The notes: generated from the letters alone by a model not told the origin. Positions 13,001 through 30,673 are shown, counted from the first letter of the stretch. The stretch is DNA of 30,673 bases from Myxococcota bacterium (GCA_028278265.1 JANQET010000278.1:1-30673), one strand, 5' to 3'. Made by a program: numbers and translations.

Positions 13001-13102
13001 ATACACTCGATTCGGATCGGTCGCTCCCGTGCGGACGCGGCCGATAGAACGTGAGTATCTTTACCCGCAGCTGGCGAGCTGCATCGAGGACTATACCTAA
13101 TC

Positions 13103-13564
13103 ATGAAATTAGTGGATATCTTACCTCTAGAATCGATCCGCATCGATCTTAAATCGACCGGCAAATCGGCAGTTCTCACTGAACTGAGCCAAATGCTCGC
13201 CAATGGTCATCAGGAACTGAATGTCGATACCGTGAGCAAAATTCTCGCTGATCGCGAACAGTTGGCCACCACCGGCATTGGTGATGGGGTCGCCATACCC
13301 CACGGCAAGCAGGACGGGTTGGGGGCCATCTGTGTCGCCGTGGGCATCGCCAAAGCTGGCGTTCCCTTTGACGCCGTCGACGGACAACCCGTGTCGATCT
13401 TCATCGCTCTGCTCGCCCCGTTGAGCGCGAGCGGAGATCACCTGCGCGCCCTGGCCAGAATCTCCCGCTTGCTTAAAGACACAGTGGTGCGGGGTCGGCT
13501 ACTGGAAGCCCGAACCGAGAAAGACGTCTACGACATCATTTGCGAGGAAGACGGAAAGTACTAA
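13103..13564 (+). CDS. ptsN: PTS IIA-Ntr (fructose-type EIIA, PtsN)
   Basis: 'TGIGDGVAIPHGK' carries the active-site His of fructose/Ntr-type EIIA. The rpoN-hpf-ptsN order is conserved. Confidence 0.85.
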   Translation: MKLVDILPLESIRIDLKSTGKSAVLTELSQMLANGHQELNVDTVSKILADREQLATTGIGDGVAIPHGKQDGLGAICVAVGIAKAGVPFDAVDGQPVSIFIALLAPLSASGDHLRALARISRLLKDTVVRGRLLEARTEKDVYDIICEEDGKY

Positions 13565-13567
13565 CCA

Positions 13568-14560
<993 letters not shown>

Positions 14561-14640
14561 CGCTCGCCTCGTCAACCAGCAGTGAGCTTGCGAAAAGCGG
14601 TCGCGATATCAACGGTTAAAACTGACAAAGAGGGGCGCAG

Positions 14641-15057
14641 ATGATCGGTATAGTGATGTGCTGTCACGGCAACATGGGCGAGGGGATGAAACACGCGGCG
14701 GAGATGATCGTTCCGATTGGCGAACAATTGGCGGTCGTCAGCGTTCAACCGGGCGACAGTGGAGAACGGATCCTGGCCGCCTTGAAAAAAGCGATCGCCG
14801 CCACAGATACCGGGGACGGCAGCCTCATTCTCACCGATATGTTCGGAGGAACACCCACCAACATCAGCTGTGCCCTATTGAAAAACGCCAATGTGGAGAT
14901 CGTGACCGGGTTCAGCCTTCCTGTGCTGATCAAAGCGCTGGAGCTGCGCGCCGAGACGACAGATCTCAGTTCGATGGCCAAGACGGCAAGCGAGTACGGC
15001 AAGCGCTACATTCTCATCGCCGGTGAGTTGCTTAAAAAGGGAGAGAGTGGAAAATAG
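14641..15057 (+). CDS. PTS mannose/fructose/sorbose-family EIIA component
   Basis: N-terminal 'MIGIVMCCHGNMGEG' has the conserved His about position 9-10 of EIIA-Man; about 138 aa. Confidence 0.8.
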   Translation: MIGIVMCCHGNMGEGMKHAAEMIVPIGEQLAVVSVQPGDSGERILAALKKAIAATDTGDGSLILTDMFGGTPTNISCALLKNANVEIVTGFSLPVLIKALELRAETTDLSSMAKTASEYGKRYILIAGELLKKGESGK

Positions 15058-15110
15058 CACCCATGGTATCGACAGGAATTAAAATACTCCGCGCGCACAA
15101 GGGAACGAGA

Positions 15111-15605
15111 ATGGATGAGCAGTTACATGTTCGGATTGACAACCGATTGCTGCACGGGCAGGTGGTTCAATTCTGGATTCCCCATCTGGAGATAACGCGA
15201 CTGGTGGTGGCCGACGATCATGTGGCGACCAACGAAGCGTTGTTGGCCATCTACAGCATGGCCGTCCCCCGAGGCGTTCAGTTGGAAGTGGTTCCGGTCA
15301 ACCGCCTGGCCGCTGCAGTGGCACAACAAGATGTGATGACCACGATGATCCTCTTGTGCAACATCGAGGATGCGGTACGAGCGACCTCTCACGGAATGCG
15401 TTTCGAACGACTGACCCTGGGCAACGTCCACGCGGCGAGCAATCGCACCCGCATCACCGATTCGGTGTACCTGTCCGATCAGGAAATGAAGACGTTGGCC
15501 GAGTTCAATCGAAACGGTATTCGCGTAGAGATTCAGACGTTTCCCAATGAGGTGTTATCACTCAAGGCTGATCCGCGAGGAGAGCTTCAGTGGTCGAGAC
15601 CGTAA
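15111..15605 (+). CDS. PTS mannose-family EIIB component (an alternative upstream start at 15063 is possible)
   Basis: 'RIDNRLLHGQVV' is the EIIB-Man phospho-His motif (RIDxRLIHGQV). Family proteins start a few residues before this motif, which favours ATG 15111 over 15063. Confidence 0.75.
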   Translation: MDEQLHVRIDNRLLHGQVVQFWIPHLEITRLVVADDHVATNEALLAIYSMAVPRGVQLEVVPVNRLAAAVAQQDVMTTMILLCNIEDAVRATSHGMRFERLTLGNVHAASNRTRITDSVYLSDQEMKTLAEFNRNGIRVEIQTFPNEVLSLKADPRGELQWSRP

Positions 15606-16270
15606 TCTGGATTGCCATCGTCGTCCTCACCGGCAGTGTTCTCGTGCTCGAACGCCATTGCCTGGGCCAGATGGCGATTGTCCAACCCCTGACCACATGC
15701 TTGGTCGCGGGATTGGTGGCGGACAATGTGGAGACCGGCTGTTGGATCGGTATTTCGCTACAGCTCTTTGCAACCCTCTCCGGCCAGCGGGCGGATTGGG
15801 CAATCGCCGGCGTCATCGCGGCCGCTTCACTGGTCATCGCTCCCAAGATCGGCTTGCCACCACTGCCCGTCGGCGGCGTGAGTTGTCTGGTGATCGCCTT
15901 GGCCATCGGTACCGGCATCGGCGCCCGGTTCATCGAGCGACGGTTTGCCAAGTCCGATGGAGAGCGGCTACGCCGGGCCTCTCCGTGGACACAGGATAAC
16001 CCGGCCACCGAGCTGGCCGCACTGGTCCATCGGTCCATCATTCGTTGGCTGGCCATGGGGGTGGTGGAGGTCACGGTTGGCGTGGGTGTAGCCATGGTCG
16101 TCCTGTTCGGTGTGGAGCGTCTGTTCGGCGTGCCGGCTTCACGGGGAACGGTGGGCGCGATTGTCGTGCCGGCGGTGGGGGTGGCGGTGATGATCACCTC
16201 ATTGGCCCGTTACCGGTATATCGCCTGGGCAGGGCTGACGATGGTGTTGACCTGGATTGTGTTTCTATGA
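15590..16270 (+). CDS. PTS mannose-family EIIC permease component
   Basis: Polytopic membrane protein. The N-terminus aligns by eye with ManY (ITTLQIVLVFIV...GLVLGDMKTGIIIG versus VIWIAIVVLTG...GLVADNVETGCWIG). GTG 15590 has a GAGGAG RBS 7 nt upstream and overlaps the EIIB end. Confidence 0.8.
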   Translation: MVETVIWIAIVVLTGSVLVLERHCLGQMAIVQPLTTCLVAGLVADNVETGCWIGISLQLFATLSGQRADWAIAGVIAAASLVIAPKIGLPPLPVGGVSCLVIALAIGTGIGARFIERRFAKSDGERLRRASPWTQDNPATELAALVHRSIIRWLAMGVVEVTVGVGVAMVVLFGVERLFGVPASRGTVGAIVVPAVGVAVMITSLARYRYIAWAGLTMVLTWIVFL

Positions 16271-17004
16271 GCGATGTTCGCAAAAGGGAGCTGTTACAAG
16301 TCAGCCTGCGGCTGGGATTGCTGCAGAGCACCTGGTGTGACGGTGTGATGCAATCGGTGGGGCTGGCCCATTGCATGGTCCCGGCGCTCAAGCGACTCTA
16401 TCCCACAGACAGTGAATTCAAACTTGCGGTACAACGCTACAAGGAACCGTTCAATACCCATCCCTTTGTGGCCAGTATCGTCGCCGGGGCGGCGATTCGC
16501 CTCGAAGCGGAACGACACCCAGAGGCGGTGATCGGAACATTCATTCGCAGCACGATGGGCCCGCTGGCCGCTCTCGGCGATCCCTTCTTTCGCGGTGCGT
16601 TGGTACCGCTGACCGCGGTTGTCGCCTCGTTTGCCGCGATTGTCGGTGGACCAATCGCGGGAATTTTGACATTATTGCTGGTGTTCAACACAGTGCATTT
16701 TGCCGTGCGGTTCGGCGGCGTTCTGATCGGATTTCACGAAGGAACCGAAGTGCTGTCCCGCGCTGCACGTTGGCTCAGCCCGACCCGTACGTCGGTGCTC
16801 AAAAAGCTCGCCGCCGCCGGTGCAGGAGTGATTCTGACCTGGGAGGTGGCGACCTTTGGCGACGTCAGCCATTTGTGGACAATCGTCGCCGTTGGGCTGT
16901 CTGGATTGCTGGCCGCGATCTTTTTGCGGTTCTGGCAATCATCGTGGGCTTTCATTGTACTCGTGTTGTTGGTAGCAGGATTGGCATTAGAGGTACTTTT
17001 ATGA
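16267..17004 (+). CDS. PTS mannose-family EIID permease component
   Basis: ATG 16267 overlaps the EIIC stop (ATGA). 'LLQSTWCDGVMQSVGLAHCMVPALKRLYPTDSEFKLAVQRYKEPFNTHPF' matches the EIID N-terminal signature (wNyErmQ...P.L..ly..d.e...al.rH.eFFNThP). The six-frame track's 16045 start belongs to an out-of-context extension. Confidence 0.8.
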   Translation: MSDVRKRELLQVSLRLGLLQSTWCDGVMQSVGLAHCMVPALKRLYPTDSEFKLAVQRYKEPFNTHPFVASIVAGAAIRLEAERHPEAVIGTFIRSTMGPLAALGDPFFRGALVPLTAVVASFAAIVGGPIAGILTLLLVFNTVHFAVRFGGVLIGFHEGTEVLSRAARWLSPTRTSVLKKLAAAGAGVILTWEVATFGDVSHLWTIVAVGLSGLLAAIFLRFWQSSWAFIVLVLLVAGLALEVLL

Positions 17005-17279
17005 CCCAAATGAGTGAAGTGACGCTCACGATCGTCAACGAGTTGGGCCTACATGCGCGGGCGGCAACCCTGTTCGTGCAGACCGCTTCCCAGTACGAGG
17101 CGGATGTGTTCGTGTCAAAAGATGGCCAGGAGGTCAACGGTAAGAGCATCTTGGGCATCCTGACCTTGATCGCGATCAAGGATTCCCAGATTGCCATTCG
17201 AGCCGAGGGACCAGGGGCTGAGCAGGCGATTGAAGCGCTGGAACAGCTGGTCGCCCAGCGGTTTGGTGAGGAGCGTTAA
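17001..17279 (+). CDS. ptsH: Phosphocarrier protein HPr
   Basis: 92 aa. 'NELGLHARAA' is the His15 site. 'GKSILGILTL' may be the HprK-target Ser region. It starts at an ATGA overlapping the EIID stop. Confidence 0.9.
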   Translation: MTQMSEVTLTIVNELGLHARAATLFVQTASQYEADVFVSKDGQEVNGKSILGILTLIAIKDSQIAIRAEGPGAEQAIEALEQLVAQRFGEER

Positions 17280-19027
17280 TGAGAACAGTTCGCAGACGGG
17301 GTATTGCCGCCTCTCCGGGCATCGCCATCGGCACCGCCCGGGTGGTCGATCGGCAGAAGATCAAGATACCCAAGATGCGCCTGTCCGCTGAGGACATCGA
17401 GCCCGAAGTCAACCGCTTGATGACCGCCATCGACGAGTCCCGCCGCCAACTCGAGTCGGCTAAGACGGCGATCTTCAACACCAGAGAACCCCACCGGGAC
17501 CATTCGCTGATCCTCGAGGCCCACCTGTTGATGCTCGAAGACGAATTGCTCGTCAAGGGGACCGTATCGCTGATCGGTGACGAGTTGATCAATGCCGAGT
17601 GGGCACTGGTACAAAAAATTGACGAGATCAAACAGATTCTGGCCGATCTGGGAGACGACTATTTCAAGGAACGCGCTCAGGACGTGGATTTCGTGGGCAA
17701 CCGGGTATTGCGCAACCTGCTCGGTCATGTCACCGAAATCATCGATGCCCAGGGGGAACCCTGCATCATCATCGCCGAAAACCTCTCCCCGGTAGAGACC
17801 ACCCAGCTGATTGAGACGCCGGTGCTCGGCTTTGCCACTGAGGTAGGGACGCGCACGAGCCACACAGCGATTATGGCACAAGCACTGGGTATCCCAGCTG
17901 TAGTGGGAGTAGAGCGCCTGGCCGAACGGATCAAGGCCGGCGATACCGTGATTGTCGACGGCAGTCACGGTGAGGTGATTATCCGCCCCGATGACGAGAC
18001 GATCGACGACTACAGCTCCCAAGCGACCGCCTACGAGGAGCTCGAGAAACGGTTGTACGCCTCCCGCGAGGAACCGGCCGTCACCACCGACGGCGTGGAG
18101 CTGAGCCTGCTGGCCAATATCGAGTTTCCCGGTGAGGCGGTGATGGCGATCGACTATGGCGCCGAAGGCATTGGCCTGTATCGAACCGAGTTTCTCTACC
18201 TGGATCGGCGGGAACTGCCCACCGAGGAAGAACAGTGCCGCATTTACAATACGGTGATTAAAACCCTCGCCCCGCGGACCGTGGTCTTTCGCACCTTCGA
18301 TCTCGGCGCGGACAAGCTGCCCACCCAAGCGGGCGGCAGAAACGCGGAGTCCGCCCTGGGGCTGCGGGCGATTCGCTTCGGCTTGAAGAACCGCACCATC
18401 TTCAAAACCCAGCTCAAGGCCCTGCTAAGAGGGGCCCGAGACGCCACATTGCACATCATGTTTCCGATGATCAGCGGCGTCGGCGAGTTGCGTCAGGTCA
18501 AAAGCCTGCTCAACCAAGCTGCCCAGGAGCTCGGTGACGAAGTGCCGAGCGAGGTCCGCGTCGGCTGTATGATCGAGCTTCCCTCGGCGATCTTCGTCGC
18601 CGATATGTTGGCCAAGGAGGTGGACTTCTTCTCCATCGGCACCAACGATTTGATTCAGTATTCCCTGGCCATCGATCGGGGCAACGACTCGGTGGCCTAT
18701 CTCTATACACCGTTTCACCCGTCTGTGCTGCGGGCGATCGACACGACGATCAAGGCGGCCAACCACGCCAACATTCCGGTGAGCATGTGCGGTGGAATGG
18801 CCTCGGAGCCGCTGCTGGTTCCGTTGCTGGTCGGGCTGGGGCTGCGCACCTTGTCGATGGCCCCCGGCTCGATCCCCATGGTGCGATCGATTATTCGCCA
18901 CATCAGCAGCGAGGAGGCGGAGGCGCTGACCCGGCAATCCCTGGAGATGGCCACTGCAACTGAAATCGAGCGGTTGATCTCCGACTACATGGATCAGAAG
19001 GTCGGGCTGGATTTTCAGTTGCTCTAA
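17279..19027 (+). CDS. ptsI: Phosphoenolpyruvate-protein phosphotransferase (PTS Enzyme I)
   Basis: 'GTRTSHTAIMAQALGIPAVVG' is the phospho-His domain, 'IGTNDLIQYSLAIDR' belongs to the PEP-utilising TIM barrel, and 'PVSMCGGMASEP' carries the Cys. The ATG overlaps the ptsH stop (TAATGA). Confidence 0.95.
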   Translation: MRTVRRRGIAASPGIAIGTARVVDRQKIKIPKMRLSAEDIEPEVNRLMTAIDESRRQLESAKTAIFNTREPHRDHSLILEAHLLMLEDELLVKGTVSLIGDELINAEWALVQKIDEIKQILADLGDDYFKERAQDVDFVGNRVLRNLLGHVTEIIDAQGEPCIIIAENLSPVETTQLIETPVLGFATEVGTRTSHTAIMAQALGIPAVVGVERLAERIKAGDTVIVDGSHGEVIIRPDDETIDDYSSQATAYEELEKRLYASREEPAVTTDGVELSLLANIEFPGEAVMAIDYGAEGIGLYRTEFLYLDRRELPTEEEQCRIYNTVIKTLAPRTVVFRTFDLGADKLPTQAGGRNAESALGLRAIRFGLKNRTIFKTQLKALLRGARDATLHIMFPMISGVGELRQVKSLLNQAAQELGDEVPSEVRVGCMIELPSAIFVADMLAKEVDFFSIGTNDLIQYSLAIDRGNDSVAYLYTPFHPSVLRAIDTTIKAANHANIPVSMCGGMASEPLLVPLLVGLGLRTLSMAPGSIPMVRSIIRHISSEEAEALTRQSLEMATATEIERLISDYMDQKVGLDFQLL

Positions 19028-20019: not shown

Positions 20020-22434
20020 TCAGTTGGTGGTGAACTCCCAATCCACGGACATGGCGTAAAACCCATCGCCGTCAAGCGCGGGGATCACGCAGTCGGTGAA
20101 ATCGTCGACGTTGTTGCCGTCATCGTCGACATTGTTGACAAAATCGTCGAAGTCACATTCGAACACGGCGACACCCCACTTCCACCTCGACGAGGCGATG
20201 AGATTCACCGGATTGGACACCGGGGAGCCCCCCTGACATGCTCCGTTCTCGTACGTGCCGCCGGTTTCCAAACAGGTGGCCAAGTAGATCACATCGTAGC
20301 GATCGTTGGGCTGTGGCGCAGCGGCCATGTCGAATTGGGTCACGTCATCGGGCAGGGCCCAGAGAATCTCGGGGAAGTCGTCCTGGCGGGGTTGGGGATC
20401 CTCGTTAAATAGAAACACGACGTAGGACCAGGGAACATCAGGTGCATCGTCGGTATAGTCCTCCCACACCAGCGTGGGTTGATTGCCCACACCGGTCGCC
20501 CCGTCTTCCGGAGAAACCAGCACGATCGGCGGAACAAAAACGAGATCCTGTGAAATATCGGTCGTGCCGTTCAATTTATCGGCACTCTGTCGGTACATCT
20601 CGTTGGTGGGGGAATCCTCCCCCGAGCCGTCCACATCGATAAACCCGAGAACATAGACCGAATCATCGCTGGTCTTGCGCAGCATTTTCAGTGAGTAGGT
20701 AGTAGCGGTGGCGGGAAGAATGACACTCGATTCCGTACTCCACTGCTCCAGATCGCCGGCCCGAATGTGATATGGCCCGCTGGCCCCCGAATTGTTGATC
20801 AGGTCGCCGCTGACCGTGATGGAGCTCGACCCGTCGTTGTCGGTGATGAAGTAGCTGCGCGTTCCATCGGCCACCGCATCGTACTCCCAGTCCAACGCCG
20901 ACAATTGATCGTACACCTGAACCGTGACGCTGATCGCTTGATCATCGGGCAGGGGATCGCTGGGCTGGTAGAGGGTCTCCGTGAGAGGCCCGCTCTGATT
21001 CCAGTACCCATCGTCGCCGTTGATGTAGACCTGGTAGGTCCCGGCATTGTCCACCCCGTCCCAATCCAGAATGGCGGTGGTCTGAGCGGCCACGGCGCCG
21101 GTCGGTGAGACCAGGGGCACATTGCGGGAGAGCTTGATGATCTCGTCCACCCCATCGGTTTCGATGTGGATCAGGTTCATCGAAATCTCCCGGTAGTAAA
21201 ACACGTACTCCCCGGCGTCGAGGGCGGTCGGATCGGGCCAGCCCAAGCTAAACCGGCCGTCGTACGGCTCTTCGTCGTAACTCATCGAGGTGTTGTCGGC
21301 CACCTGCCCGCATCCCCCGTCATCGAGTAGTACGGCTACCTCACCGTTGGGCAGCAGGACCCGCGGCGGCGTGGTGTTGGCGTCCGACGGCCCTTCGGTC
21401 TCCAACCGCAGGTAGTACCCTTCACAGAGTCCCAGACCGTCCACCCAGTTATCCGATCCGGGCGGATCCTCGTACTCCGGTGGGCGGGGAAAGGCGGACT
21501 CGTGGCTGGTGAAGACGTTGAACGACGAAAAATGATCCGTCTCCCACTGATCCATCAGCTCGAGGTTGACCTCGGTCGCGTCGTTTTGATCGATCACTAT
21601 GGCCGAGCTCGCCGGCGCCTGGGGATCAAAGGGCAGGGTCGGCCGCTGGTCCGGGTTCAACCCGTGGGGACCGTGGGCATCCCGGAAGGCCCGCACGTAG
21701 TACGTTCCGTCCCCGACTCTGAAATTGTAGCTGGTTGGGGGAAACTGTTCGTTTTCCACGGCGACCAATGTCAGCTCTTGATGGTGATCGAGGATCGCTG
21801 CCGGGCTGGTGTAGAGCCGCACGTAGACCGCGGTGCCCGAAGTCGACCCACCATGCTGAGAGATCGTCCCCGAGATCGTTCGAGGATTGTGAACCACCGG
21901 CACCTCAGCGGGCGCGGAGAGGCCGGCCGTATTCTTCAGGAATACCTGAACCGTGAGCGCAGTCCCGTCCGCCGGCTCGGTGTAGGCAGCGGAGACGACG
22001 AATTGTCCCTGTTCGTTCACTTGGCCTACCTGACCGCCGATCTCGGTGGTGCCGTTCAATACGGCGACGATAACGGTGGTGCCAATCTCGCCGCGACCCT
22101 CCACTCGGAGCGGGCTGGCCACATTTGTACCCTGCTGGGGAAGCAACACAATCGGGGCGTCGGGCACTCCTTCGTCATCAGTATCGGTGTCCGAATCGGT
22201 ATCGGTATCGGTATCGGCATCCGCGTCGGTGTCTGTATCGGTGTCTGAATCCGCATCGGTATCGGCGTCCGTGTCAGCATCCGTGTCCGTGTCGGTATCC
22301 GTGTCCGTATCCCCGCTCCCACTGGCGTCGGTTCCCCCATCGGATTCCTCATCATCATCGCCGCAGGCCGCACTGAAACACGCAAAACCAAAGACCAGGA
22401 CGAGCCCACTGGACCAACTCAATAGACGATTCAC
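20020..22434 (-). CDS. Large (804 aa) secreted lipoprotein with an N-terminal (Asp-Thr/Ala/Ser)n acidic repeat and multiple probable Ig/FN3-like beta domains; function unknown
   Basis: GTG start 22434 with a GGGAGG RBS. 'MNRLLSWSSGLVLVFGFACFSAAC' is a signal peptide plus lipobox. It is followed by 'SGSGDTDTDTDTDTDADTDADTDADSDTDTDTDADADTDTDTDSDTDTDDEG'. The C-terminal segment is Asp-rich, 'CDFDDFVNNVDDDGNNVDDFTDC'. The 3' end overlaps the PduO gene start region by 22 nt. Confidence 0.8.
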   Translation of the reverse strand: MNRLLSWSSGLVLVFGFACFSAACGDDDEESDGGTDASGSGDTDTDTDTDTDADTDADTDADSDTDTDTDADADTDTDTDSDTDTDDEGVPDAPIVLLPQQGTNVASPLRVEGRGEIGTTVIVAVLNGTTEIGGQVGQVNEQGQFVVSAAYTEPADGTALTVQVFLKNTAGLSAPAEVPVVHNPRTISGTISQHGGSTSGTAVYVRLYTSPAAILDHHQELTLVAVENEQFPPTSYNFRVGDGTYYVRAFRDAHGPHGLNPDQRPTLPFDPQAPASSAIVIDQNDATEVNLELMDQWETDHFSSFNVFTSHESAFPRPPEYEDPPGSDNWVDGLGLCEGYYLRLETEGPSDANTTPPRVLLPNGEVAVLLDDGGCGQVADNTSMSYDEEPYDGRFSLGWPDPTALDAGEYVFYYREISMNLIHIETDGVDEIIKLSRNVPLVSPTGAVAAQTTAILDWDGVDNAGTYQVYINGDDGYWNQSGPLTETLYQPSDPLPDDQAISVTVQVYDQLSALDWEYDAVADGTRSYFITDNDGSSSITVSGDLINNSGASGPYHIRAGDLEQWSTESSVILPATATTYSLKMLRKTSDDSVYVLGFIDVDGSGEDSPTNEMYRQSADKLNGTTDISQDLVFVPPIVLVSPEDGATGVGNQPTLVWEDYTDDAPDVPWSYVVFLFNEDPQPRQDDFPEILWALPDDVTQFDMAAAPQPNDRYDVIYLATCLETGGTYENGACQGGSPVSNPVNLIASSRWKWGVAVFECDFDDFVNNVDDDGNNVDDFTDCVIPALDGDGFYAMSVDWEFTTN
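22170..22330. repeat. Imperfect hexanucleotide repeat (GTATCG/GTGTCC-like units) encoding the (D-T/A/S)n tract of the large lipoprotein
   Basis: 'gtatcggtgtccgaatcggtatcggtatcggtatcggcatccgcgtcggtgtctgtatcggtgtctgaatccgcatcggtatcggcgtccgtgtc...' has 6-nt periodicity. Confidence 0.6.
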
Positions 22435-22649: not shown

Positions 22650-22820
22650 CCGGGGCGCTTTGATCCGAACAGCGACAGCTGTTTCAACTATGTGCGCGAG
22701 ATGCGCGGCGAGATGTGGGCCGAAAGCGATGGGCCGAACCGCGGCGCCCGCTTCGTGATCAGTCTGCCACTGCGGTTCGATCGACCGCTCACCCCGGAGC
22801 TGCCACTCGAGTTGAACTGA
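22650..22820 (+). pseudogene. Remnant of a sensor histidine kinase gene (only the last ~55 codons of the HATPase_c domain)
   Basis: The frame ending at TGA 22818-22820 translates to '...FNYVREMRGEMWAESDGPNRGARFVISLPLRFDRP', the conserved HK C-terminal G2-box/tail pattern (hGGxiwveSxxGxGxxFxxxLPl). A stop lies at 22647-22649 just upstream, and no intact upstream kinase domain is visible. Confidence 0.4.
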
Positions 22821-22858: not shown

Positions 22859-25800
22859 CTACTTCTTCTTGGGAGCGGGATGGGGCGAGGCGATCGCTTT
22901 GGCAAACGGAGGTGAGCCCGACGGGGGTTGCGGCGGGGAAGAAGGTGACGGCGGCTTGCTCTCCATCGCCGATTGGGCGTTGGCCAGTAGGCGCGCCTGA
23001 TTGGCCAATAGCTCGATGACGTGATCCACGTCCTGACGGGTTTGATGATCCTTGGTGGAGAGCTGGGTCGCGCTCGAGGCGATCGTATCCTGGATCGACC
23101 GCAGCCCGTCACCGAAGGTGCTGAGCAGCGCGATCACCTGGCCCATTCGATCGTCCCCCGTCCCGGCGGTCAATTGATTGCGGTTGAATGTTTTTTTGAT
23201 CTCTGCCCAGCGCTCTGTCTCGGTTTCGGAGAGGGTGCCGGTCATCTCCTTGAATTTGAGCAGGTTGGCCTCGGCACCGGTGGTCAAGGTTTGCGCTTCG
23301 CGGGCATAGTGGTCCAGCACGAGCAGCTCCACCTCTTTGTCGTTCATAATCGGCAGCACCTTCTCGGCGATGCGGTTCATGTTGCGATAGGATCCCTGTA
23401 ACTTGAACGGGGGCTCGGTGCGGTAGGCATCGGCCTGAGCAGCGGAATAGATGTACGCCTGGTTGACCCGGAGGATCACGTCCCGCACCTGGAGCAGCTT
23501 ACCCATCACCGAGATGTAATCTGCGAGCTCAGCCCCGGCATAGTTGCCGGCAAAGTCGATCCCTTCGCGAGATCCCCTCTGGGCCGCCTCGATGATGCCA
23601 TACACATCTTTAAAATGTTTGGCCGCCAATTGGCCGAGAATCGGGCTGGAGGTGATTGAGTTCTCCAGGTAGCTCATTTCGAACACGGCCACATCATCGC
23701 CAATGATGTCCCCCAGATTGTAGGTGTCCGCTCGATTGGCCAGCATGTCGGGGATTTTGAAGGCCTCCCCGCTCTCCGAATAGGGGTTGCCAGCCATCAC
23801 CACGCACACTCGGCGTCCCCGCAGATCGTAGGTGCGCGTGCGACCCTGATACACCCCTTCGATCTTTCGTTGGGCGTCGCACAGGGAGATGAACTTCTGC
23901 AGGAACTCCGGGTTCAGGTGTTGGATGTCGTCGAGATAAATCATCACATTGTCGCTCATTTCGAACGACAGGCTGAGTTTCTTCATCTCCTCCCGGGCCG
24001 CCGCGTTGGGCGCCTCCTGGGGATCGAGGGAGGTGACCTGGTGCCCAATCGCCGGGCCGTTGATCTTCATGAAAATCAGCCCCAACCGGTTGGCGACATA
24101 CTCCATCAAGGTGGTCTTGCCGTACCCCGGCGGAGAGATGATCAGCAACAGGCCCATGCGGTCGGTGCGCGTGTTCTCGCCCACCACACCTATTTGCTTG
24201 GCCAGGTTGTCCCCGACCAATGGGAGGTAGACCTTGTCGATCAGGCGGTTGCGAACAAACGAGCTCAAGATGCGCGGCTTGAATTCGTCCAACCGCATCT
24301 CGGCGGTGGTTTCATCGATGATGCGGCTCTTCAACTCCCGGTGGGCGACAAACAGCGGCACCACCTCGGCCTCGAACCGCGCCAGGCGAATCATGAAATC
24401 GTTGTAGTCCAAGCGGTACCGGCCTTCGGTGATTTGCGGGTGATCACCGACCAGGCCTTTCAGCTCGGTCACCACCGTCGCATGGACCACCCGTTGGCGG
24501 TCGAAAATCCCCGAGAGCAGCAGCGCGGCGACCTCCTCGTGGTACTCCCGGAACGCTTCATCGTCGTTTTCGCGGGCAAACGCCCGGACCCAATCCTTGA
24601 CCAGCACATAGGCATCCGGTTGGGCATTCTTCAACGCCTCCATCGGTCGGAGCAGATCCTTTCCCACTCCCCGGCGATTGAGGTGCCCCTGAAATCGCTG
24701 AAAGAGACCCGCGGCATCCGGGCTGATCGCCCAGTGCTTCTCCTCGGTGAGCACGCAGAACAGATAGGCCGCCGCCTGGTCGGCCAGAAACGGCTCGAAC
24801 AGGCCATCATCTTCGATGAACTTATCGATCAGCGACCTGAGCTCGTCGACATAGTGCTGTTGTTCGGCGCTGCGCTGGAACAGGCGTTTAATCGCCCCCA
24901 CACCGGTGAGCTTCGATTCGATGCGGGCCTTGGCCGTCTGGTCGGCGAAGCAGTGCCAAAAGACCAACGCCAACGCCCGGGCCCGGGTGCTGTACCGCAG
25001 CAGTCCGATGGTCTGCTCCATTTTGCTCAGGGCGTCGGCGATCAGTGCCCCGTCGTGATCGTGAACCCCCTTGACATACCCTTCGGCATAGCGCGGCCCC
25101 ATGAACTGCTGAACCAGGGGCTGCCACCCCGCCGGATCGGCCGCTTGCAGCTCCGGGGTGCCGCCGGTCTGCTGCGACGCCAACAGCATGTACGCCAGAT
25201 ACTCACCCCGGTAGACGTGCTCATTCTCTGAAATCAACGGTTGATCCCATACCGGCTTGGTCTCATCGATGCGCGGATCGGTGATCTTTTCAAAAAAATC
25301 GGTACCGGTGAGATGGAGGTACTGACCGTCCGGACGGCCGACAATGGTCAGCCCCAGGGGTTGGGTGTTCACCGAAAACTTGTGGCGGCCGAACTGGAGC
25401 ACATTTTGTCCATCGACGAACAACTCTTGGCGATCGGTGAGCTGGCGCAGGGTGTCCTGTTGCAGGGTCTTGAGCCGGGTCTGCAGGTCATCGGCCTTGA
25501 TTGCGTCGTCCATCCCCCGCAGCTCAGTGATGATGTCCCGCACCTTCTCCACCATCAGGTCGGCGGCGAAGTAACCGTTGATTTCGTCCACCGACGCGAA
25601 GCGATCGAGCCGCGAGGTCATCCCGGAAAGGATGCGCTCGGCACTCTTGAGCAGGGCGTCGGAGCGTTTGTTCCGTTGCTCGACCAGCTTCAGTTTGCGG
25701 GACTCAAAGGCAGTGTAGATCTCATCGCGCTTCTCGGCCAGGGTGAGAATGAATTTATCGAACTGGGAGAACTTGCCCTCCAATTCGCTGAGCTGAATCG

Positions 25801-27976
25801 TCATCTTGGTCAAATAGGTGTCGCACTTCTCCGGTGTGTCACTGACCTCCAGGTAGTTGATCACCGCCTGATCGAGCAGCTTCATCTGGGAGACAAATTC
25901 CGCCGTGCCCTCGGCCTCGGCCAGCTGGGCGAACTTGGCCTTTGTTCGAGAGCGCACCTGGTTCAATGTGGCGTAAACGGTGGAGATGCGTTCGACAATG
26001 GCCGTGCGTTGGGTGGTGTCTTCAATCTTCAGGTTGCTCACCGTGTCGATCAGCAACTCCAGCTCGGCGCCGCAGCTCCCGATTGCCTCCTGGAGAGCGG
26101 TCGCTTCGGTGACCTTGCCCAAGGTGTCGACGTTTCGACCGAGAGCGTCCACCCTTTTTTCGTAGGGACTGAGCGCGGTGTCTTTCAACAGAAAGTCAAC
26201 CGAGCGGGCGGCGAGTCGACCGGTCTCCTCGGTGACCTGTTGTTCGAGATGATCGATTTCGTCGACATCTGCATAGCGCAAATCCTTCAACGAGATGATC
26301 GTCCCCCGCGCCCCCCGCAAGGCCGACAGTAGCTCGACGTAGTCATCGATGGTGTCATAGCGCCGGCTCTTGACGTCGGTGAGAATGGTGCGAACATCGG
26401 TGGCCACCTCATCGATGCGAGCGCGGGTGCTCCGCTTGAGCTCGGTGACCTTTTCGAACTCATCGATCGCAGCACCAGCCGCATCGACGATGCCGGTGAG
26501 CGGGAATTTCAGGTCGAACACCTCATCCCGATCGAGCCAAAAGTAGGCGTCCAGCACCTCGCTCGCCTCTTTGACGATGTCAACGTAGATGTTGGCGTAC
26601 CCCTCCTCTTTTTTGACCAGAGTCGACACATGACTGCAGGCGGCCATACAGTGCACAATATCCCGGTTGCCCAACTTGTAGAGGTAGCTCTCCCCCTGAG
26701 CGGGGATCTCGAAGTTCGCTCCGGTGTAAGGGGTTTGCCAAATCTGGATCGCGTGGTGTTTTTGCGGCTCGTCTTGGGATCGATTGAACAACAGCTCCCC
26801 GTTCTCGAAGATGGAAAACCCGTGGCAGATGATTGGGGGGGCCACCTGCTGCTCGATCATGTTGTAGGAGAGCAGCACGTACATCCCGCTTTTGCGATTG
26901 AAAAACACAAAGAGGGTGTCCTCCCCGTTGGGGGACTTGATCCGCCGTTGAAAGTGCATGTCCTCCAATCCCTGCTCGAACTGTTTGAGCTCACCGGTTT
27001 GGAGGTAGTAGCCGTTGGCAAAGATGATGCCGTGATCCTCGGGCAGGAGGATGCACGAATCCTCGATGGCGTCGATGCGTTGCGCCTGGCCGGTTTTTTC
27101 GTTGAACACAATATAGCGGTAGCGCCGCTCCTGATACGGTTTGATCATCAGCAGGATCAAATTGCCAACGACGGCGTAGCGAATCTCCGCGTCGTCGAGG
27201 GTCTGATCCGGGTCTTCCACCGGTTCGGCATAGATGCCGCCCCCGGTGTCGGTGTTGTCCTCCACTTTGATCGTCAAATCCCCACCGATGGTCTCGACGA
27301 AAATGCGCTCCTCGATGGAGATGTGGGGATGCTCGCCGGCCCGGTGGTCGTCCCGGGTGGCCCGGGTCCACTCGAATTCGTGCTGGGCGGGTTGTTTCAG
27401 ATCGTGGTCGCTGCGATTGTCCACATAGGTCAGGGTGCCGTCTTCTTCATACAGCCACTTGAACGATTTGGTGTCTGCCGTATCCCGACCGACAGCGAAG
27501 ACCATGAACAGGGCGGTGCCCACGGTGCTGAAGTGGGAGAACCGGGTGTCTTTGTAGTAGCGGTACAGATTTTTGAAATCCTCTTCGAACCGTTTGTCCC
27601 CAAGCAGGGTGAGCTCGATTTTGTGAAAGGACTGGTTGTCATAGGTGTAGGTGGCAAAAACGTCCGTCAGCTGGATCTCGGTGCGCAGGCCCAGGTGCAC
27701 GTTGTAGCTGAAGAGCAGCACATTGCCCACGCTGACCATGTCCTGGGAGATGCAGTTGTTGTCCGTGGTGACCCGTTCGGTCGTCAGCAGTTGGGTCTCG
27801 ATCGCGCCGAACACCTGCTTGCGGGCCTTGTTCAGTTGATCCAACCTATCCTGCAGCACTTTGGACTGGGCGGTCAGACGGCTGCGGATAATCTCGTAGG
27901 TTCCTCCGTCCAGCTGCGCCTCGTCGGTCGGCGGTGTCCCATCGGGTGGGGTATTGGGCTCGGTCTTTTCAGCCAT
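22859..27976 (-). CDS. Giant (1705 aa) cytoplasmic protein with a C-terminal-third MoxR/AAA_5-type AAA+ ATPase core, extensive coiled-coil middle region and a Pro-rich basic tail; function unknown; likely co-operonic with NfeD-flotillin
   Basis: ATG 27976 lies 41 nt downstream of the flotillin stop with a purine-rich RBS. Walker A is 'LLLIISPPGYGKTTLMEY', encoded about 24108-24155. Walker B is 'VMIYLDDIQHL'. The sensor/Arg region 'RVCVVMAGNPYSESGEAFKIPDMLANRADTYNL' is AAA_5/MoxR-like. No signal peptide or TM segment. The tail is '...SKPPSPSSPPQPPSGSPPFAKAIASPHPAPKKK'. Confidence 0.85.
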   Translation of the reverse strand: MAEKTEPNTPPDGTPPTDEAQLDGGTYEIIRSRLTAQSKVLQDRLDQLNKARKQVFGAIETQLLTTERVTTDNNCISQDMVSVGNVLLFSYNVHLGLRTEIQLTDVFATYTYDNQSFHKIELTLLGDKRFEEDFKNLYRYYKDTRFSHFSTVGTALFMVFAVGRDTADTKSFKWLYEEDGTLTYVDNRSDHDLKQPAQHEFEWTRATRDDHRAGEHPHISIEERIFVETIGGDLTIKVEDNTDTGGGIYAEPVEDPDQTLDDAEIRYAVVGNLILLMIKPYQERRYRYIVFNEKTGQAQRIDAIEDSCILLPEDHGIIFANGYYLQTGELKQFEQGLEDMHFQRRIKSPNGEDTLFVFFNRKSGMYVLLSYNMIEQQVAPPIICHGFSIFENGELLFNRSQDEPQKHHAIQIWQTPYTGANFEIPAQGESYLYKLGNRDIVHCMAACSHVSTLVKKEEGYANIYVDIVKEASEVLDAYFWLDRDEVFDLKFPLTGIVDAAGAAIDEFEKVTELKRSTRARIDEVATDVRTILTDVKSRRYDTIDDYVELLSALRGARGTIISLKDLRYADVDEIDHLEQQVTEETGRLAARSVDFLLKDTALSPYEKRVDALGRNVDTLGKVTEATALQEAIGSCGAELELLIDTVSNLKIEDTTQRTAIVERISTVYATLNQVRSRTKAKFAQLAEAEGTAEFVSQMKLLDQAVINYLEVSDTPEKCDTYLTKMTIQLSELEGKFSQFDKFILTLAEKRDEIYTAFESRKLKLVEQRNKRSDALLKSAERILSGMTSRLDRFASVDEINGYFAADLMVEKVRDIITELRGMDDAIKADDLQTRLKTLQQDTLRQLTDRQELFVDGQNVLQFGRHKFSVNTQPLGLTIVGRPDGQYLHLTGTDFFEKITDPRIDETKPVWDQPLISENEHVYRGEYLAYMLLASQQTGGTPELQAADPAGWQPLVQQFMGPRYAEGYVKGVHDHDGALIADALSKMEQTIGLLRYSTRARALALVFWHCFADQTAKARIESKLTGVGAIKRLFQRSAEQQHYVDELRSLIDKFIEDDGLFEPFLADQAAAYLFCVLTEEKHWAISPDAAGLFQRFQGHLNRRGVGKDLLRPMEALKNAQPDAYVLVKDWVRAFARENDDEAFREYHEEVAALLLSGIFDRQRVVHATVVTELKGLVGDHPQITEGRYRLDYNDFMIRLARFEAEVVPLFVAHRELKSRIIDETTAEMRLDEFKPRILSSFVRNRLIDKVYLPLVGDNLAKQIGVVGENTRTDRMGLLLIISPPGYGKTTLMEYVANRLGLIFMKINGPAIGHQVTSLDPQEAPNAAAREEMKKLSLSFEMSDNVMIYLDDIQHLNPEFLQKFISLCDAQRKIEGVYQGRTRTYDLRGRRVCVVMAGNPYSESGEAFKIPDMLANRADTYNLGDIIGDDVAVFEMSYLENSITSSPILGQLAAKHFKDVYGIIEAAQRGSREGIDFAGNYAGAELADYISVMGKLLQVRDVILRVNQAYIYSAAQADAYRTEPPFKLQGSYRNMNRIAEKVLPIMNDKEVELLVLDHYAREAQTLTTGAEANLLKFKEMTGTLSETETERWAEIKKTFNRNQLTAGTGDDRMGQVIALLSTFGDGLRSIQDTIASSATQLSTKDHQTRQDVDHVIELLANQARLLANAQSAMESKPPSPSSPPQPPSGSPPFAKAIASPHPAPKKK

Positions 27977-28017
27977 GGGTGGTCGCTCGTTCCTCTTCGG
28001 TTATCGCCAGTTTAACG

Positions 28018-30144
28018 CTAGGACCGGGTCACGCCGAGCAGGGCGGCGGCCTGCTGTCCGGTCACGCCGAGCTGCTTGGCCGTACCGGTCAGGCGGTCCA
28101 AGCTCTTCAACACAGCATCGTCATCCGTCATTGCCGTGACCTTGGTCAGCAACGCGGAGATGGTCAGGTTCTTCAGATCCCCGGCGGTCAAGCCGAATTG
28201 TCCCACCAGCTTGCGCAGCTCTGCAGCCAGATTTTCCTCCCCCGGTTTGAGCAGCGAGCTCTTGACATCCGACAGCACCTGGCTCGAACCCACGGTGCGA
28301 TCGACCGACTTGCCCACGGCCACGGAGTTGACGATTTTATCGAAGAACGATCCGTCGCCACCGACGATGTCGATGTTGGCCTGCTTGAGCGCTTCGCCCA
28401 CCAGGGAGGCCTGGGCCTTGGCCACTTCCTGGCGAATATTGATCTCGGCCAGGGCCACTTCCAGGTCTTTGTTGAGCCGAAGCTTGAACTCCTCGTGTTC
28501 CCGACCCACACCGTCGAACAGCTTCATCGCCTCGGCCTTTTCCTTGATCCCCTCCGCTTCGGAGTGGAATTTCTGCTGCATCACCTCGGCCTCGGCTTTG
28601 CCCTGTTTCTCCACCGCCAGGGCCTTGGCCTCCAGACCCCGGGCCTCGGCCACGGCTTTGCGCTCAATCACGGTCGCCTCAGCGGTGCCGAACTTCTCAG
28701 TGGACTCGGATTTGGCGTCCAGCGCACGGGCTTCCCCCATGCCCTTGATCGCCTCTTCCTGGGCGCTGGCGTCGGCCATGATTTTGCGCGCATCGGCCTC
28801 TTTCTCCGACGCGGCCCGCTGCCCTTCGGCCTTGATTACCACCTCCTTGGCTTCCAGCTCGGCGGATGCCTTGTTGGCCTCGGCGATTTTGATCAGCTTG
28901 ATCTTCTCCTCTTCGCCCTCTTTTTCGGCGAGGGTGACGGCGACCTGTTTGGCCCTGTCGGCGGTGGCGAATTCCCGCGCGTCCTTGATCTTCTCCTCTT
29001 GCTCCACCACCGAACGCTCGACCGCCACCCGCTCGCGAATCACCTCTTGAATGTTGCGTTTTTCAACTTCGATGGCCTTTTCCTTTTCGATCGCCGCCAG
29101 AGCGACCACTCGTTCTTTTTCGGTCGCTTCAATACCCCGCTCTTTTTCCAAGCGCTCGGTCTCCACCGCCTCGGTGCGCTGTTTGTTCTTTTGCGCCACG
29201 ATCACTTGGCGGAGCTTGTTCTCTTCGGCAATCGCCACCTCTTCGTCAGTGGCGATGCGGGAGCGCTCGGCCTTGAGCCGTTCCTCTTGCTGCACCTTGA
29301 ACGCTTCGGCCTCCTGGTGCGCGGTGATCTCCCGCACTTCTCGCTTTTGTTTCTGCTCGGCTTCGGCCTGCTGCTTCTCCAGGACCAGGATCGCCTCGCG
29401 GGTTTCCACGTCCTGTTTCTTGATCGTCTTTTCTTTTTCGCGGGCGATGGCGTTGGCCAGGATCGCCTGCTTGGCGGTCAGATCGGTGATCTTCTTGATC
29501 CCGTCCGAGTCGAGAATGTTGTTCTTGTCCAAATTCTCCAAGTTGGTTTGTTCCAGGTAGTCGATCGCCGCATCGTCGAGCAGGTAGCCGTTCAGATCGG
29601 TACCGATCACCTTGAGGATCTCCTCTTTGAACCGTTGCCGGTTGGTGTACAGCTCGACGAATTCGAACTGTTTGCCCACGGTTTTGAGCGCTTCGGAGAA
29701 CTTGGCGTCAAAAAACTCGACCAGCGCTTGGGGATCCGACGCCCGCGCACAGCCCAGGGACTGAGCCACTTTGAGCGTGTCGTGGGGTGTCTTGTTAACT
29801 TGAACGAAGAAGGCCACCTTGACATCGGCGCGCATGTTGTCGTTGCAGATCAATCCGTTCTTGCCCATTCGATCGATTTCCACCCGCTTGACCGAGATGT
29901 CCATCAGCTCCATGCGATGGATCACCGGCAGCACCAGCATGCCCGAGAAGCTCACTTTGGTTCCCCCCAGGCCGTTGCGGATCAACACCGTGCCCTGTTC
30001 GACTTTTTTGTAACACTTGATCAGCATCGAAAAGATGCCAAAGAGCACGATGGCGGCGACCACCGCCGCGGCGGCCAGGACCACGGTCGGATCCAGGTCA
30101 TCAAACGCGGCGAGAAACGGTGTCGAAAAAATGGTTGTCCACAT
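28018..30144 (-). CDS. Flotillin-family SPFH/band-7 protein (YqiK/FloT-like) with an N-terminal TM anchor and a long Glu/Ala/Lys-rich coiled coil
   Basis: N-terminal TM segment (VVLAAAAVVAAIVLFGIFSMLI), then 'LIRNGLGGTKVSFSG', 'RADVKVAFFVQVNK' and 'DRAKQVAVTLAEKEGE'. These match YqiK blocks recalled from memory (VRTGLGG, RVDVVVAFFVRV, DRAKQVAL). A GGAGGAG RBS lies inside the NfeD 3' end. Confidence 0.9.
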   Translation of the reverse strand: MWTTIFSTPFLAAFDDLDPTVVLAAAAVVAAIVLFGIFSMLIKCYKKVEQGTVLIRNGLGGTKVSFSGMLVLPVIHRMELMDISVKRVEIDRMGKNGLICNDNMRADVKVAFFVQVNKTPHDTLKVAQSLGCARASDPQALVEFFDAKFSEALKTVGKQFEFVELYTNRQRFKEEILKVIGTDLNGYLLDDAAIDYLEQTNLENLDKNNILDSDGIKKITDLTAKQAILANAIAREKEKTIKKQDVETREAILVLEKQQAEAEQKQKREVREITAHQEAEAFKVQQEERLKAERSRIATDEEVAIAEENKLRQVIVAQKNKQRTEAVETERLEKERGIEATEKERVVALAAIEKEKAIEVEKRNIQEVIRERVAVERSVVEQEEKIKDAREFATADRAKQVAVTLAEKEGEEEKIKLIKIAEANKASAELEAKEVVIKAEGQRAASEKEADARKIMADASAQEEAIKGMGEARALDAKSESTEKFGTAEATVIERKAVAEARGLEAKALAVEKQGKAEAEVMQQKFHSEAEGIKEKAEAMKLFDGVGREHEEFKLRLNKDLEVALAEINIRQEVAKAQASLVGEALKQANIDIVGGDGSFFDKIVNSVAVGKSVDRTVGSSQVLSDVKSSLLKPGEENLAAELRKLVGQFGLTAGDLKNLTISALLTKVTAMTDDDAVLKSLDRLTGTAKQLGVTGQQAAALLGVTRS

Positions 30145-30147
30145 GGC

Positions 30148-30673
30148 TTACTCCTCCGAATCCCAAAGGGTCTCTACGATATACACATTTTTATTCTTGA
30201 TGTAGTCGGTGACCACGACCTCCTGCCCCTGCTCGAAGCGCTGTCCCGGCCGGGTGATCACATTGAGCGTCAAGGGCGCGCCGTCGGTCTCGATCACCGC
30301 CTGCCCGAACGTCTCGTTGGCTTCACTGGTCTTGATCACGCAGGGGCGCCCGAGCACTTCATCATCCGGTTCTATGTCGGTTTGCTTGTCCAGTGCGCGA
30401 AACACTTTTTTTATCGGGGTGGTGAACAGCTTGGCCAAAAATGCGCTGACGATCACATTGGGAACCGCGATCACCGCGCCGATCAACAGCGATTCATTGT
30501 GCAGCATCACATTGGCCACCAGGGAGATGACCCACATGCTCAACCCGAAAAAGCTGACGAAGACCATGAGCGGAATCTCACCCACATTGAAGAACATCAA
30601 CAGAGTGTGGAAAAAGCCCCCGCCGTGTCCCCCCTCTGCATCCCCGTCAGCATCTGCATCTGCGTCCGCGTCC
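30148..30673 (-). CDS. NfeD-like (YqiJ-type) membrane protein partner of flotillin. The 5' end may lie beyond the window, since the frame is open to the edge.
   Basis: A hydrophobic N-terminal region is followed by a C-terminal OB-fold-like segment '...LTLNVITRPGQRFEQGQEVVVTDYIKNKNVYIVETL'. The TAA stop lies 3 nt before the flotillin ATG. An in-frame ATG is at 30595-30597 and the tool's TTG is at 30600. The same frame continues without a stop through 30601-30673 as '...DADADADADGDAEGGHGGGFFHTLL', so the gene may start outside the window. Confidence 0.75.
   Translation of the reverse strand, partial: DADADADADGDAEGGHGGGFFHTLLMFFNVGEIPLMVFVSFFGLSMWVISLVANVMLHNESLLIGAVIAVPNVIVSAFLAKLFTTPIKKVFRALDKQTDIEPDDEVLGRPCVIKTSEANETFGQAVIETDGAPLTLNVITRPGQRFEQGQEVVVTDYIKNKNVYIVETLWDSEE

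Follow-up and report, generated by a model that had tools for sequence, protein, structure and literature searches.

What powers the flotillin scaffolds and PspA/Vipp1 (ESCRT-III-like) polymers of bacteria, and how these are assembled and turned over, is a question for the whole field, and bacteria are thought to lack an equivalent of Vps4. This question is raised in concrete form by three genes in a 30,673-nucleotide stretch of DNA from a Myxococcota bacterium (GCA_028278265.1, JANQET010000278.1:1-30673; the window, meaning the whole stretch that was analysed). They encode an NfeD-like membrane protein, a flotillin and a soluble protein of 1705 residues with an AAA+ ATPase module, here called the giant. 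Genetic coupling of the giant to a YqiK-type flotillin and an NfeD2 partner is near-obligate and far beyond chance, and coupling of this trio to PspA is facultative yet recurrent. We therefore ask what the giant does there, and we lean, by a modest degree, toward an ATP-driven remodeller working at flotillin/PspA assemblies beneath the membrane. As the ATPase is highly conserved, almost always lies beside a flotillin gene and often lies near pspA, it is a concrete candidate for the energy-consuming component.

The three genes and their two junctions are arranged as follows.

30148..>30673, minus strand: gene for a YqiJ/YuaF-type NfeD2-like membrane protein, an open reading frame (ORF) with its C-terminal 174 codons visible and its N-terminus beyond the window end.
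30145..30160, minus strand: NfeD-like/flotillin junction, consisting of a GGAGGAG Shine-Dalgarno sequence, TAA, 3 nt and ATG (read from the sequence).
28018..30144, minus strand: gene for the YqiK-type flotillin, an ORF of 708 aa with an ATG start.
27977..28017, minus strand: flotillin/giant spacer of 41 nt, with GAGGA ~14 nt before the giant ATG.
22859..27976, minus strand: gene for the giant soluble protein, an ORF of 1705 aa with an ATG start.

The ORF table confirms the layout given in an earlier note on this DNA, namely three co-directional minus-strand genes separated by gaps of 3 nt and 41 nt. The ribosome-binding sites that the note placed there can also be read upstream of the ATGs, GAGGA for the giant and GGAGGAG for flotillin, the latter 5-6 nt upstream of the start and within the final codons of the NfeD-like gene. 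A terminator or independent promoter splitting the giant from flotillin, which the note had singled out for checking, did not turn up: a promoter and terminator scan found no terminator-like or promoter-like site in either the 3-nt or the 41-nt gap. The spacing of the trio is tight and compatible with a single transcript, and the three genes may well be co-transcribed. On the 3' side of the giant gene, a gap of 424 nt is followed by an unrelated 804-aa ORF.

The giant belongs to a large family, with more than 5362 homologous clusters, many of them labelled 'DNA repair ATPase', and its relatives include Planctomycetota and 'Deltaproteobacteria' metagenome-assembled genomes (MAGs). A scan of one genome per species identified at least 568 giant loci, and the best 80 were taken with 8-kb flanks; these 80 are the closest relatives of the window locus, more distant family members may differ, and the gene calls in them are simple ORF calls. 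Flotillin and NfeD-like genes were counted by tblastn with the window proteins; the ORF caller sometimes picked the antisense of the E/A/K-rich flotillin gene. By this count, a same-strand flotillin gene lies directly upstream of the giant in 62 of the 65 loci that have at least 2.5 kb of upstream DNA. The NfeD-like gene, which is poorly conserved, lies upstream of flotillin in 51 of 61 loci with at least 4 kb of DNA, and the two genes mostly overlap or are less than 50 nt apart. The trio spans at least six phyla, with loci in Planctomycetota, Bacteroidota, Verrucomicrobiota, Desulfobacterota, Clostridia, Kiritimatiellota and Omnitrophota, and it occurs in the cultured Bacteroidota Hymenobacter, Pontibacter, Aquimarina, Leeuwenhoekiella, Tenacibaculum and Flavobacterium. 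The neighbourhood of giant homologues is thus conserved in the way that the earlier note had proposed to look for. Distance matrices of the trio correlate with r of 0.73-0.80, and the value for giant versus flotillin (r 0.80) was reached by 0 of 999 permutations; the trio genes are therefore inherited together, which does not by itself prove contact. The 804-aa ORF and a cobalamin adenosyltransferase gene on the 3' side of the window giant are conserved in none of the related loci. Present in at least seven bacterial lineages, cultured genera included, the module offers a well-defined experimental target.

Some loci carry a small variable ORF between flotillin and the giant (L028:7524-7943, L030:7513-7929 and L073:7580-7915). 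The types found, in Bacteroidota and Verrucomicrobiota loci, include DUF559 (Vsr-like endonuclease fold), a PDDEXK_3 nuclease and a biotin/lipoyl-like domain. They appear to be hitch-hiking insertions and not components of the system.

Linkage to pspA takes several forms. A PspA profile match lies within 8 kb in 20 of the 80 loci, and further matches accompany the later-added relatives L081, L083, L085 and L086. Beside the trio, pspA is found in at least five different arrangements. In 16 Bacteroidota loci a CesT_Tir-PspA pair lies upstream of the trio in the same direction, and the block order there is divergent HTH/S24 (helix-turn-helix, S24 peptidase) regulator, CesT_Tir_1, PspA_IM30, NfeD-like, flotillin, the small variable ORF where present, and giant (Pfam scores 1.6e-56 for CesT_Tir_1 and 2.2e-41 for PspA_IM30). 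A further Bacteroidota locus (L015) instead has pspA on the other strand, downstream of the giant. A pspA operon divergent from NfeD-flotillin-giant is present in the two loci whose giants are closest to that of the window (62% identity). In two 'Deltaproteobacteria' MAGs with giants 57-59% identical, genes for PspA and a 577-aa AAA protein come next after the giant in the same direction. Two Phycisphaerae loci have a PspA-like gene right behind the giant, and one Verrucomicrobiota locus has a convergent pspA. Different gene orders that join the same families argue for a functional link more strongly than a single inherited order. The suggestion in the earlier note that the ATPase acts at flotillin assemblies is thus a reasonable one, strengthened by this repeated and independently arranged linkage.

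Three features of these pspA loci deserve mention in their own right. The divergent operon of the closest relatives (L081:820-2833 and L083:4121-6529) adds thioredoxin, rhodanese and two family-less proteins of 139 and 145 aa; the 139-aa protein sits where the CesT/Tir-like gene would be, and it has no Pfam match. In the two 'Deltaproteobacteria' MAGs (L085:15325-17789 and L086:15538-18005) the order is giant, PspA (244 aa) and the 577-aa PF00004 AAA protein. The last may be the two-AAA-domain PspA partner described by Ravi et al., in which case two different ATPases stand beside one PspA in these loci. At L045:2334-3086 on the minus strand, with equivalents in 15 Bacteroidota loci, lies the gene of an XRE-type HTH protein that weakly matches S24 peptidases (LexA-like). 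It is transcribed divergently from the CesT-PspA-NfeD-flotillin-giant block, and this suggests that a self-cleaving repressor controls the operon there.

The locus had been put forward in the earlier note as a candidate undescribed module, and that claim does not stand. Ravi et al. (mSystems 2024, PMC11237479; bioRxiv 2020) already report an operon of a YqiJ/YuaF protein with 3TM (three transmembrane segments), a Band-7/flotillin protein and an ATPase composed of beta-propeller, coiled coil and AAA+ domain. In their account the operon either includes a CesT/Tir-PspA dyad or takes a widespread 'abbreviated' form that lacks PspA. Their type example is the Dokdonia donghaensis ANH61663.1 neighbourhood, the order of which is given in a supplementary table. 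The work is purely computational, and the authors propose a chaperone-like assembly of membrane-linked complexes. The core trio in the window has matching architectures and order, and the Flavobacteriia loci found with the window giant reproduce the Dokdonia order, including the divergent HTH and protease regulator; this likeness rests on architecture and gene order and not on direct sequence comparison. The window differs in that it has the trio only, with no CesT/Tir or PspA gene within 30.6 kb, and it therefore corresponds to the 'abbreviated' form of Ravi et al. The locus adds one more member to a published operon family known computationally only, and not a new kind of system. What the present analysis adds is the adjacency of pspA in its various arrangements, those of the window's closest relatives included. 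The 2009 SPFH survey (Hinderhofer et al., PMC2636767) and a 2026 Pseudomonas SPFH paper leave the ATPase unmentioned, and Popp et al. (2022) noted the PspA-Band7/FloT-NfeD links and not the ATPase. According to a 2025 review, a Vps4-like ATPase 'appears absent in bacteria', and the Band-7 proteins that partner PspA have 'undetermined roles'. Nothing relevant came from literature searches on DUF3686, PF12458, 'DNA repair ATPase' with flotillin, or flotillin with MoxR.

The identity of the two membrane partners emerges from family profiles. The window flotillin alone has zero matches in Pfam, NCBIfam and PDB sequences, probably because the sequence is compositionally biased and divergent, and an SPFH-only profile of its family matched nothing in the PDB. 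Homology to YqiK emerged only through profile-profile comparison, in which a 29-member flotillin profile (A2) matches E. coli YqiK with an hhalign probability of 100% (E 5.5e-42, 30% identity, 397 columns). This match spans the membrane anchor, the SPFH domain and part of the coiled coil and stops at A2 column 429; the C-terminal ~280 residues, which are conserved, lie beyond it. Residues 32-698 of the window flotillin are 54% identical to a Leeuwenhoekiella homologue (L045), whose residues 32-215 match Pfam Band_7 (7e-14, above the gathering score), and homologues carry the names 'flotillin family protein' or 'YqiK' at NCBI and JGI. The regions of the window protein are as follows.

30007..30102, minus strand: N-terminal membrane anchor, aa 15-46 (19-residue hydropathy maximum 2.78).
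29455..30006, minus strand: SPFH/Band-7 domain, ~aa 47-230, aligned to the YqiK SPFH domain and to the Band_7 part of the Leeuwenhoekiella homologue.
28465..29454, minus strand: E/A/K-rich coiled-coil region, ~aa 231-560 (E 21%, A 17%, K 13%).
28021..28464, minus strand: conserved C-terminal region, aa 561-708, with motifs HEEFKL, IDIVGG and FFD (alignment A2).

Hydropathy indicates a single N-terminal anchor, with the bulk of the protein after it. The coiled-coil region is partly aligned with that of YqiK and also has a profile match to the QmcA coiled coil (E 2.5e-4). The NfeD-like fragment has at least two hydrophobic helices followed by a soluble C-terminal domain, again by hydropathy. On its own it matches Pfam YqiJ_N with E 0.0018, which falls under the cut-off, and the profile of its family (A3) matches E. 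coli YqiJ with an hhalign probability of 96.7% (E 3.5e-10, 186 columns). Of 26 family members, eight match Pfam YqiJ_N (best E 1.5e-5) and two match Pfam NfeD; the profile match to the YuaF structure 2k14 is weak (E 0.093). Both the YqiK/FloT-like flotillin and the YqiJ/NfeD-like membrane protein of the earlier note are thereby borne out. Since the family profiles match E. coli YqiJ and YqiK, the window dyad is, judged by sequence profiles, a YqiJ/YqiK-type NfeD2-flotillin pair. A precomputed Pfam domain is present in none of the 120 closest flotillin homologues, and Band_7 is matched individually by 5 of 29 sequences. With Band_7 so rarely detected in a clearly YqiK-like family, domain-based SPFH surveys would largely miss a large flotillin clade.

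The giant has Pfam matches to DUF3686 (aa 41-479, E 5.6e-188; Pfam label 'ATPase involved in DNA repair'), DUF7902 (aa 601-681, E 5.2e-26) and AAA (PF00004, aa 1277-1397, 2.8e-7), and none to a well-characterised family of unrelated function, a kind of match that the earlier note had said would refute its proposal. Its description there as a 1705-aa soluble protein holds, as hydropathy reveals no hydrophobic segment or transmembrane helix (maximum 19-residue Kyte-Doolittle mean 1.25). AlphaFold models built on 45-sequence alignments have a mean pLDDT (predicted local distance difference test score) of 81.9 for residues 1-1200 and 77.5 for residues 1191-1705, and they outline the following parts.

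26735..27793, minus strand: beta-propeller domain, aa 62-414, the core of DUF3686 (all-beta model, pLDDT ~85-90), preceded by a helix at 24-56.
25430..26686, minus strand: long helical coiled-coil-like stalk, aa 431-849, including DUF7902 (model helices of 20-58 residues).
24512..25402, minus strand: small beta unit, aa 859-897, and helical domain, aa 923-1155 (from the model; matching no recognised family).
23177..24193, minus strand: AAA+ module, ~aa 1262-1600, with alpha/beta core and helical lid.
24110..24136, minus strand: Walker A motif SPPGYGKTT, aa 1281-1289, invariant in 20 sequences.
23918..23947, minus strand: Walker B motif VMIYLDDIQH, aa 1344-1353, with Asp-Asp in place of the usual Asp-Glu.
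23825..23866, minus strand: pre-sensor-1 beta-hairpin, aa 1371-1384, between helix alpha3 and the sensor-1 strand (AlphaFold model).

The best local Foldseek matches of the N-terminal model are CyRPA, the kelch protein KLHDC3, WD40 proteins, the prolyl-oligopeptidase propeller and YncE, and DUF3686 is therefore predicted to be a beta-propeller. A full-library search with residues 1-500 gave 749 clusters (50% identity level). Nearly all of the matches listed have the domain at the N-terminus, and the longest matches (~1500-2040 aa) have the architecture of the giant. The propeller thus looks essentially private to giant-type proteins, and the shorter matches are presumably fragments. Across 19 homologues the AAA+ core is the most conserved part, with ~84% mean identity to the window protein, compared with ~63% on average for the propeller. 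The beta unit and helical domain form the least conserved folded part (mean identity 0.44), and the model ends in a disordered Pro/Ser-rich tail after the AAA+ lid. Many homologues are 80-150 aa longer, and a detached C-terminal piece in the 424-nt gap was considered; it was rejected because all C-terminal matches fall within the giant ORF.

The type of AAA+ module bears on what the giant might do. In the model the hairpin strands (model numbering 181-186 and 189-194) are followed by a strand at 200-204 that bears AGN(1397)P, and the motif residues are constant: sensor 1 N1397, the candidate arginine finger R1415 and the Walker B residues D1349 and D1350 are invariant in the 20 sequences, with the DD motif also the consensus of the 45-sequence alignments. 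A loop of 18 residues between beta2 and alpha2, considered with regard to the helix-2 insert of the MoxR clade, is likewise invariant, and the model has no hairpin there. Foldseek ranks RuvB first, followed by NorQ, ClpC1 and MCM; other close folds are CbbQ, ClpB (ClpB-D2), midasin, Lon and dynein, and Vps4 ranks under the MoxR and HCLR proteins. The top structural neighbours NorQ, CbbQ, RuvB, ClpB-D2, MCM, Lon and dynein presumably all belong to the hairpin-bearing superclade. The model thus offers solid grounds for placing the giant in that superclade, outside the classical Vps4/p97 clade. A classical-clade assignment, drawn from phmmer P-loop matches, had been entertained and was rejected, since both the pre-sensor-1 hairpin and the order of the fold matches speak against it. 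The term 'MoxR/AAA_5-class' used in the earlier note is reasonable with regard to the hairpin and the NorQ/CbbQ folds but is not uniquely established, as Pfam AAA_5 is sub-threshold (21.5 bits versus a cut-off of 22; PF00004 scores 31.5) and RuvB ranks first. No VWA/MIDAS partner is conserved nearby: besides flotillin, NfeD-like, PspA, CesT/Tir and HTH-S24 proteins, no neighbour cluster recurs in more than 6 of the 80 loci, and the sole VWA protein seen lies ~7 kb away in the locus of one relative.

These observations can be joined in a tentative mechanism. The YqiJ-like NfeD2 protein and the YqiK-like flotillin would together build an SPFH scaffold that is anchored in the inner membrane and faces the cytoplasm. 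The cytosolic 1705-aa protein, presumably co-transcribed with them, would oligomerise via its single AAA+ module, and six copies would amount to more than 1 MDa with six stalks and six propellers. The propeller and the long helical stalk would dock the giant on the flotillin scaffold, possibly through the family-specific C-terminal region of flotillin, and on PspA where it is present. With ATP as its fuel, the giant would put together, remodel or take apart flotillin and/or PspA polymers when the membrane is under stress or being repaired, a role resembling that of Vps4 toward ESCRT-III or of FtsH inside the HflK/C cage, with an architecture homologous to neither. This reading draws on the AAA+ folds being closest to the remodelling chaperones NorQ, CbbQ, ClpB and midasin, on the absence of a transmembrane helix from the giant together with a flotillin whose bulk follows one N-terminal anchor, and on a trio that is tightly spaced with no terminator detected, conserved and repeatedly linked to pspA. 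Ravi et al. drew the same contextual inference (PMC11237479), and the reported need of PspA for the SPFH protein YdjI at the B. subtilis membrane also speaks for it. A bolder version, which is possible but doubtful, makes the giant the missing functional equivalent of Vps4 in bacteria: it would dock on flotillin cages and, in membrane repair, build up or disassemble the polymers of flotillin and PspA/ESCRT-III.

Several points weigh against a remodeller at flotillin/PspA assemblies. Physical contact of the giant with flotillin or PspA, its substrate and the direction of remodelling are things we infer. Correlated trees would be expected from shared descent alone. A solitary giant with ample upstream DNA occurs in three loci (L016, L026 and L041), and two short contigs (L005 and L017) have no flotillin gene in the ~1.4 kb upstream that is available. 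A search of the 30.6 kb of the window for pspA found none, and CesT/Tir and 577-aa AAA genes, also sought across the window, gave none either; in the closest relatives pspA sits upstream of the NfeD-like gene, and the corresponding DNA here lies past the window end. MoxR-type ATPases typically act with a VWA/MIDAS partner, and the loci of the giant conserve none. The invariant Asp-Asp Walker B may signify slow, switch-like or regulated hydrolysis rather than a processive motor. Finally, E. coli yqiJK is adjoined by no such ATPase, and sibD/ibsD come next.

The same facts can be read in other ways. It is conceivable that flotillin and NfeD only recruit the ATPase, whose substrates would be other membrane or sub-membrane complexes that it matures, extracts or subjects to quality control. 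By analogy, MoxR-family maturation of enzyme complexes and the corralling of FtsH by HflK/C toward membrane-protein clients could serve as precedents, the nearest folds NorQ and CbbQ are maturation or activation chaperones, and beta-propellers are generic platforms for protein binding. The chaperone-like assembly of membrane-linked complexes proposed by Ravi et al. (PMC11237479) points the same way, and one report (PMC11222466) describes flotillin microdomains of S. aureus as confining and stabilising unfolded proteins. However, no candidate client gene is conserved beside the trio, the neighbours varying except for pspA and CesT; the VWA adaptor is not present; and the recurrent pspA linkage suggests that the polymers themselves are the target. 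We regard a general client chaperone as unlikely. The product names 'ATPase involved in DNA repair' and 'DNA repair ATPase', from Pfam DUF3686 and NCBI, would instead make the giant a repair enzyme whose position beside flotillin is functionally meaningless. The P-loop region is weakly similar to RuvB, and YncE, one of the propeller matches, binds DNA. Yet the RuvB similarity is common to every AAA+ protein with a pre-sensor-1 hairpin, no DNA-binding, nuclease or helicase domain was detected in the giant, and its constant partners are membrane proteins. Searches of the literature for DUF3686, PF12458 and 'DNA repair ATPase' with flotillin brought up no paper, and no experiment behind the name was found. 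A role in DNA repair is thus barely credible, and the name, borne by many of more than 5,000 homologue clusters, stands without visible basis.

Phage defence, which the earlier note had raised as an alternative, would have the flotillin scaffold sense envelope damage and trigger the giant as an effector or signal transducer of abortive infection. Defence systems commonly contain large NTPases with propeller or repeat sensors, ORFs of the DUF559 and PDDEXK_3 nuclease families lie between flotillin and the giant in some loci, and the Bacteroidota operon faces an HTH and S24-peptidase-like regulator. Against this, a search of the three proteins with PADLOC-DB 2.0 gave only mad8 on the P-loop of the giant (E 0.0013), a trivial match, and the core has no nuclease, protease, pore or NADase effector. 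The inserted small ORFs are variable and missing from most loci, the window neighbours are housekeeping genes, and conservation is very high across phyla (the AAA+ core being ~84% identical) with a stable gene order, unlike the fast evolution and patchy distribution of defence genes. The phage-defence alternative thus finds little in its favour here, and we consider it very unlikely. Remodelling of flotillin and PspA assemblies remains the reading that we prefer.

The rest of the window gives the trio its setting, with two features to be listed.

11135-19027, plus strand: housekeeping cluster of rpoN (sigma-54), HPr kinase (hprK), phosphotransferase system (PTS) mannose-family IID and PTS enzyme I (ptsI).
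20020-22434, minus strand: 804-aa ORF downstream of the giant, with a hydrophobic signal-like N-terminus and an acidic Ser/Asp-rich stretch.

Upstream of the housekeeping cluster lie genes for a polyA-polymerase/CCA-type nucleotidyltransferase, a FabG-like short-chain dehydrogenase/reductase and an aminotransferase, and the cobalamin adenosyltransferase gene is a further neighbour. With such neighbours the flotillin module appears to lie in the core chromosome and not in an island. The 804-aa ORF has no family match, only weak matches to MSCRAMM SD-repeat regions. The 424-nt gap contains a 56-codon open stretch (22650-22820, plus strand) ending ...YVREMRGEMWAESDGPNRGARFVISLPLRFD...LELN and a stop, which by eye resembles the C-terminus of a histidine-kinase HATPase_c domain; as a stop codon comes before it, it is probably the remnant of a gene convergent with that of the giant. 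Scans of the window for Rfam families and tRNAs gave no matches.

Among known systems, HflK/C-FtsH is a precedent for pairing an SPFH protein with an AAA+ enzyme, and by analogy both systems would functionally pair an SPFH-family scaffold with a hexameric AAA+ enzyme at the inner membrane. FtsH is a membrane-anchored AAA protease of the classical clade, whereas the giant has neither transmembrane helix nor protease domain and does have a pre-sensor-1 hairpin; HflK/C also faces the periplasm, whereas YqiK-type flotillins are cytoplasmic. The MoxR chaperones NorQ, CbbQ and RavA differ from the giant with respect to its sub-threshold AAA_5 score, the first rank of RuvB, the Walker B DD and the lack of a conserved VWA/MIDAS partner, and the giant adds ~1250 N-terminal residues foreign to MoxR proteins. 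As with Vps4/ESCRT-III (CdvC/CdvB), gene order here links an AAA+ ATPase to a membrane polymer of the ESCRT-III superfamily, PspA, a functional analogy also proposed by Ravi et al. (PMC11237479). Unlike Vps4, with its N-terminal MIT domain and hairpin-less classical AAA module, the giant has a helix and propeller at its N-terminus and carries the hairpin. On the scaffold side, the SPFH2/NfeD2 pairs E. coli YqiJ-YqiK and B. subtilis YuaF(NfeD2)-FloT (PMC2636767) are homologous by profile and likewise have the NfeD gene directly upstream. YqiK and FloT share with the window flotillin one N-terminal anchor, an SPFH domain and a long coiled coil, although E. coli YqiK has 553 aa versus 708. The B. 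subtilis ydjFGHI operon has no ATPase, its YdjI belongs to another SPFH subfamily, and YdjG and YdjH are absent here. Nevertheless, it too encodes an SPFH protein (YdjI) and PspA together, and YdjI is reported to be needed to localise PspA to the membrane (PMC8581546, PMC10936438).

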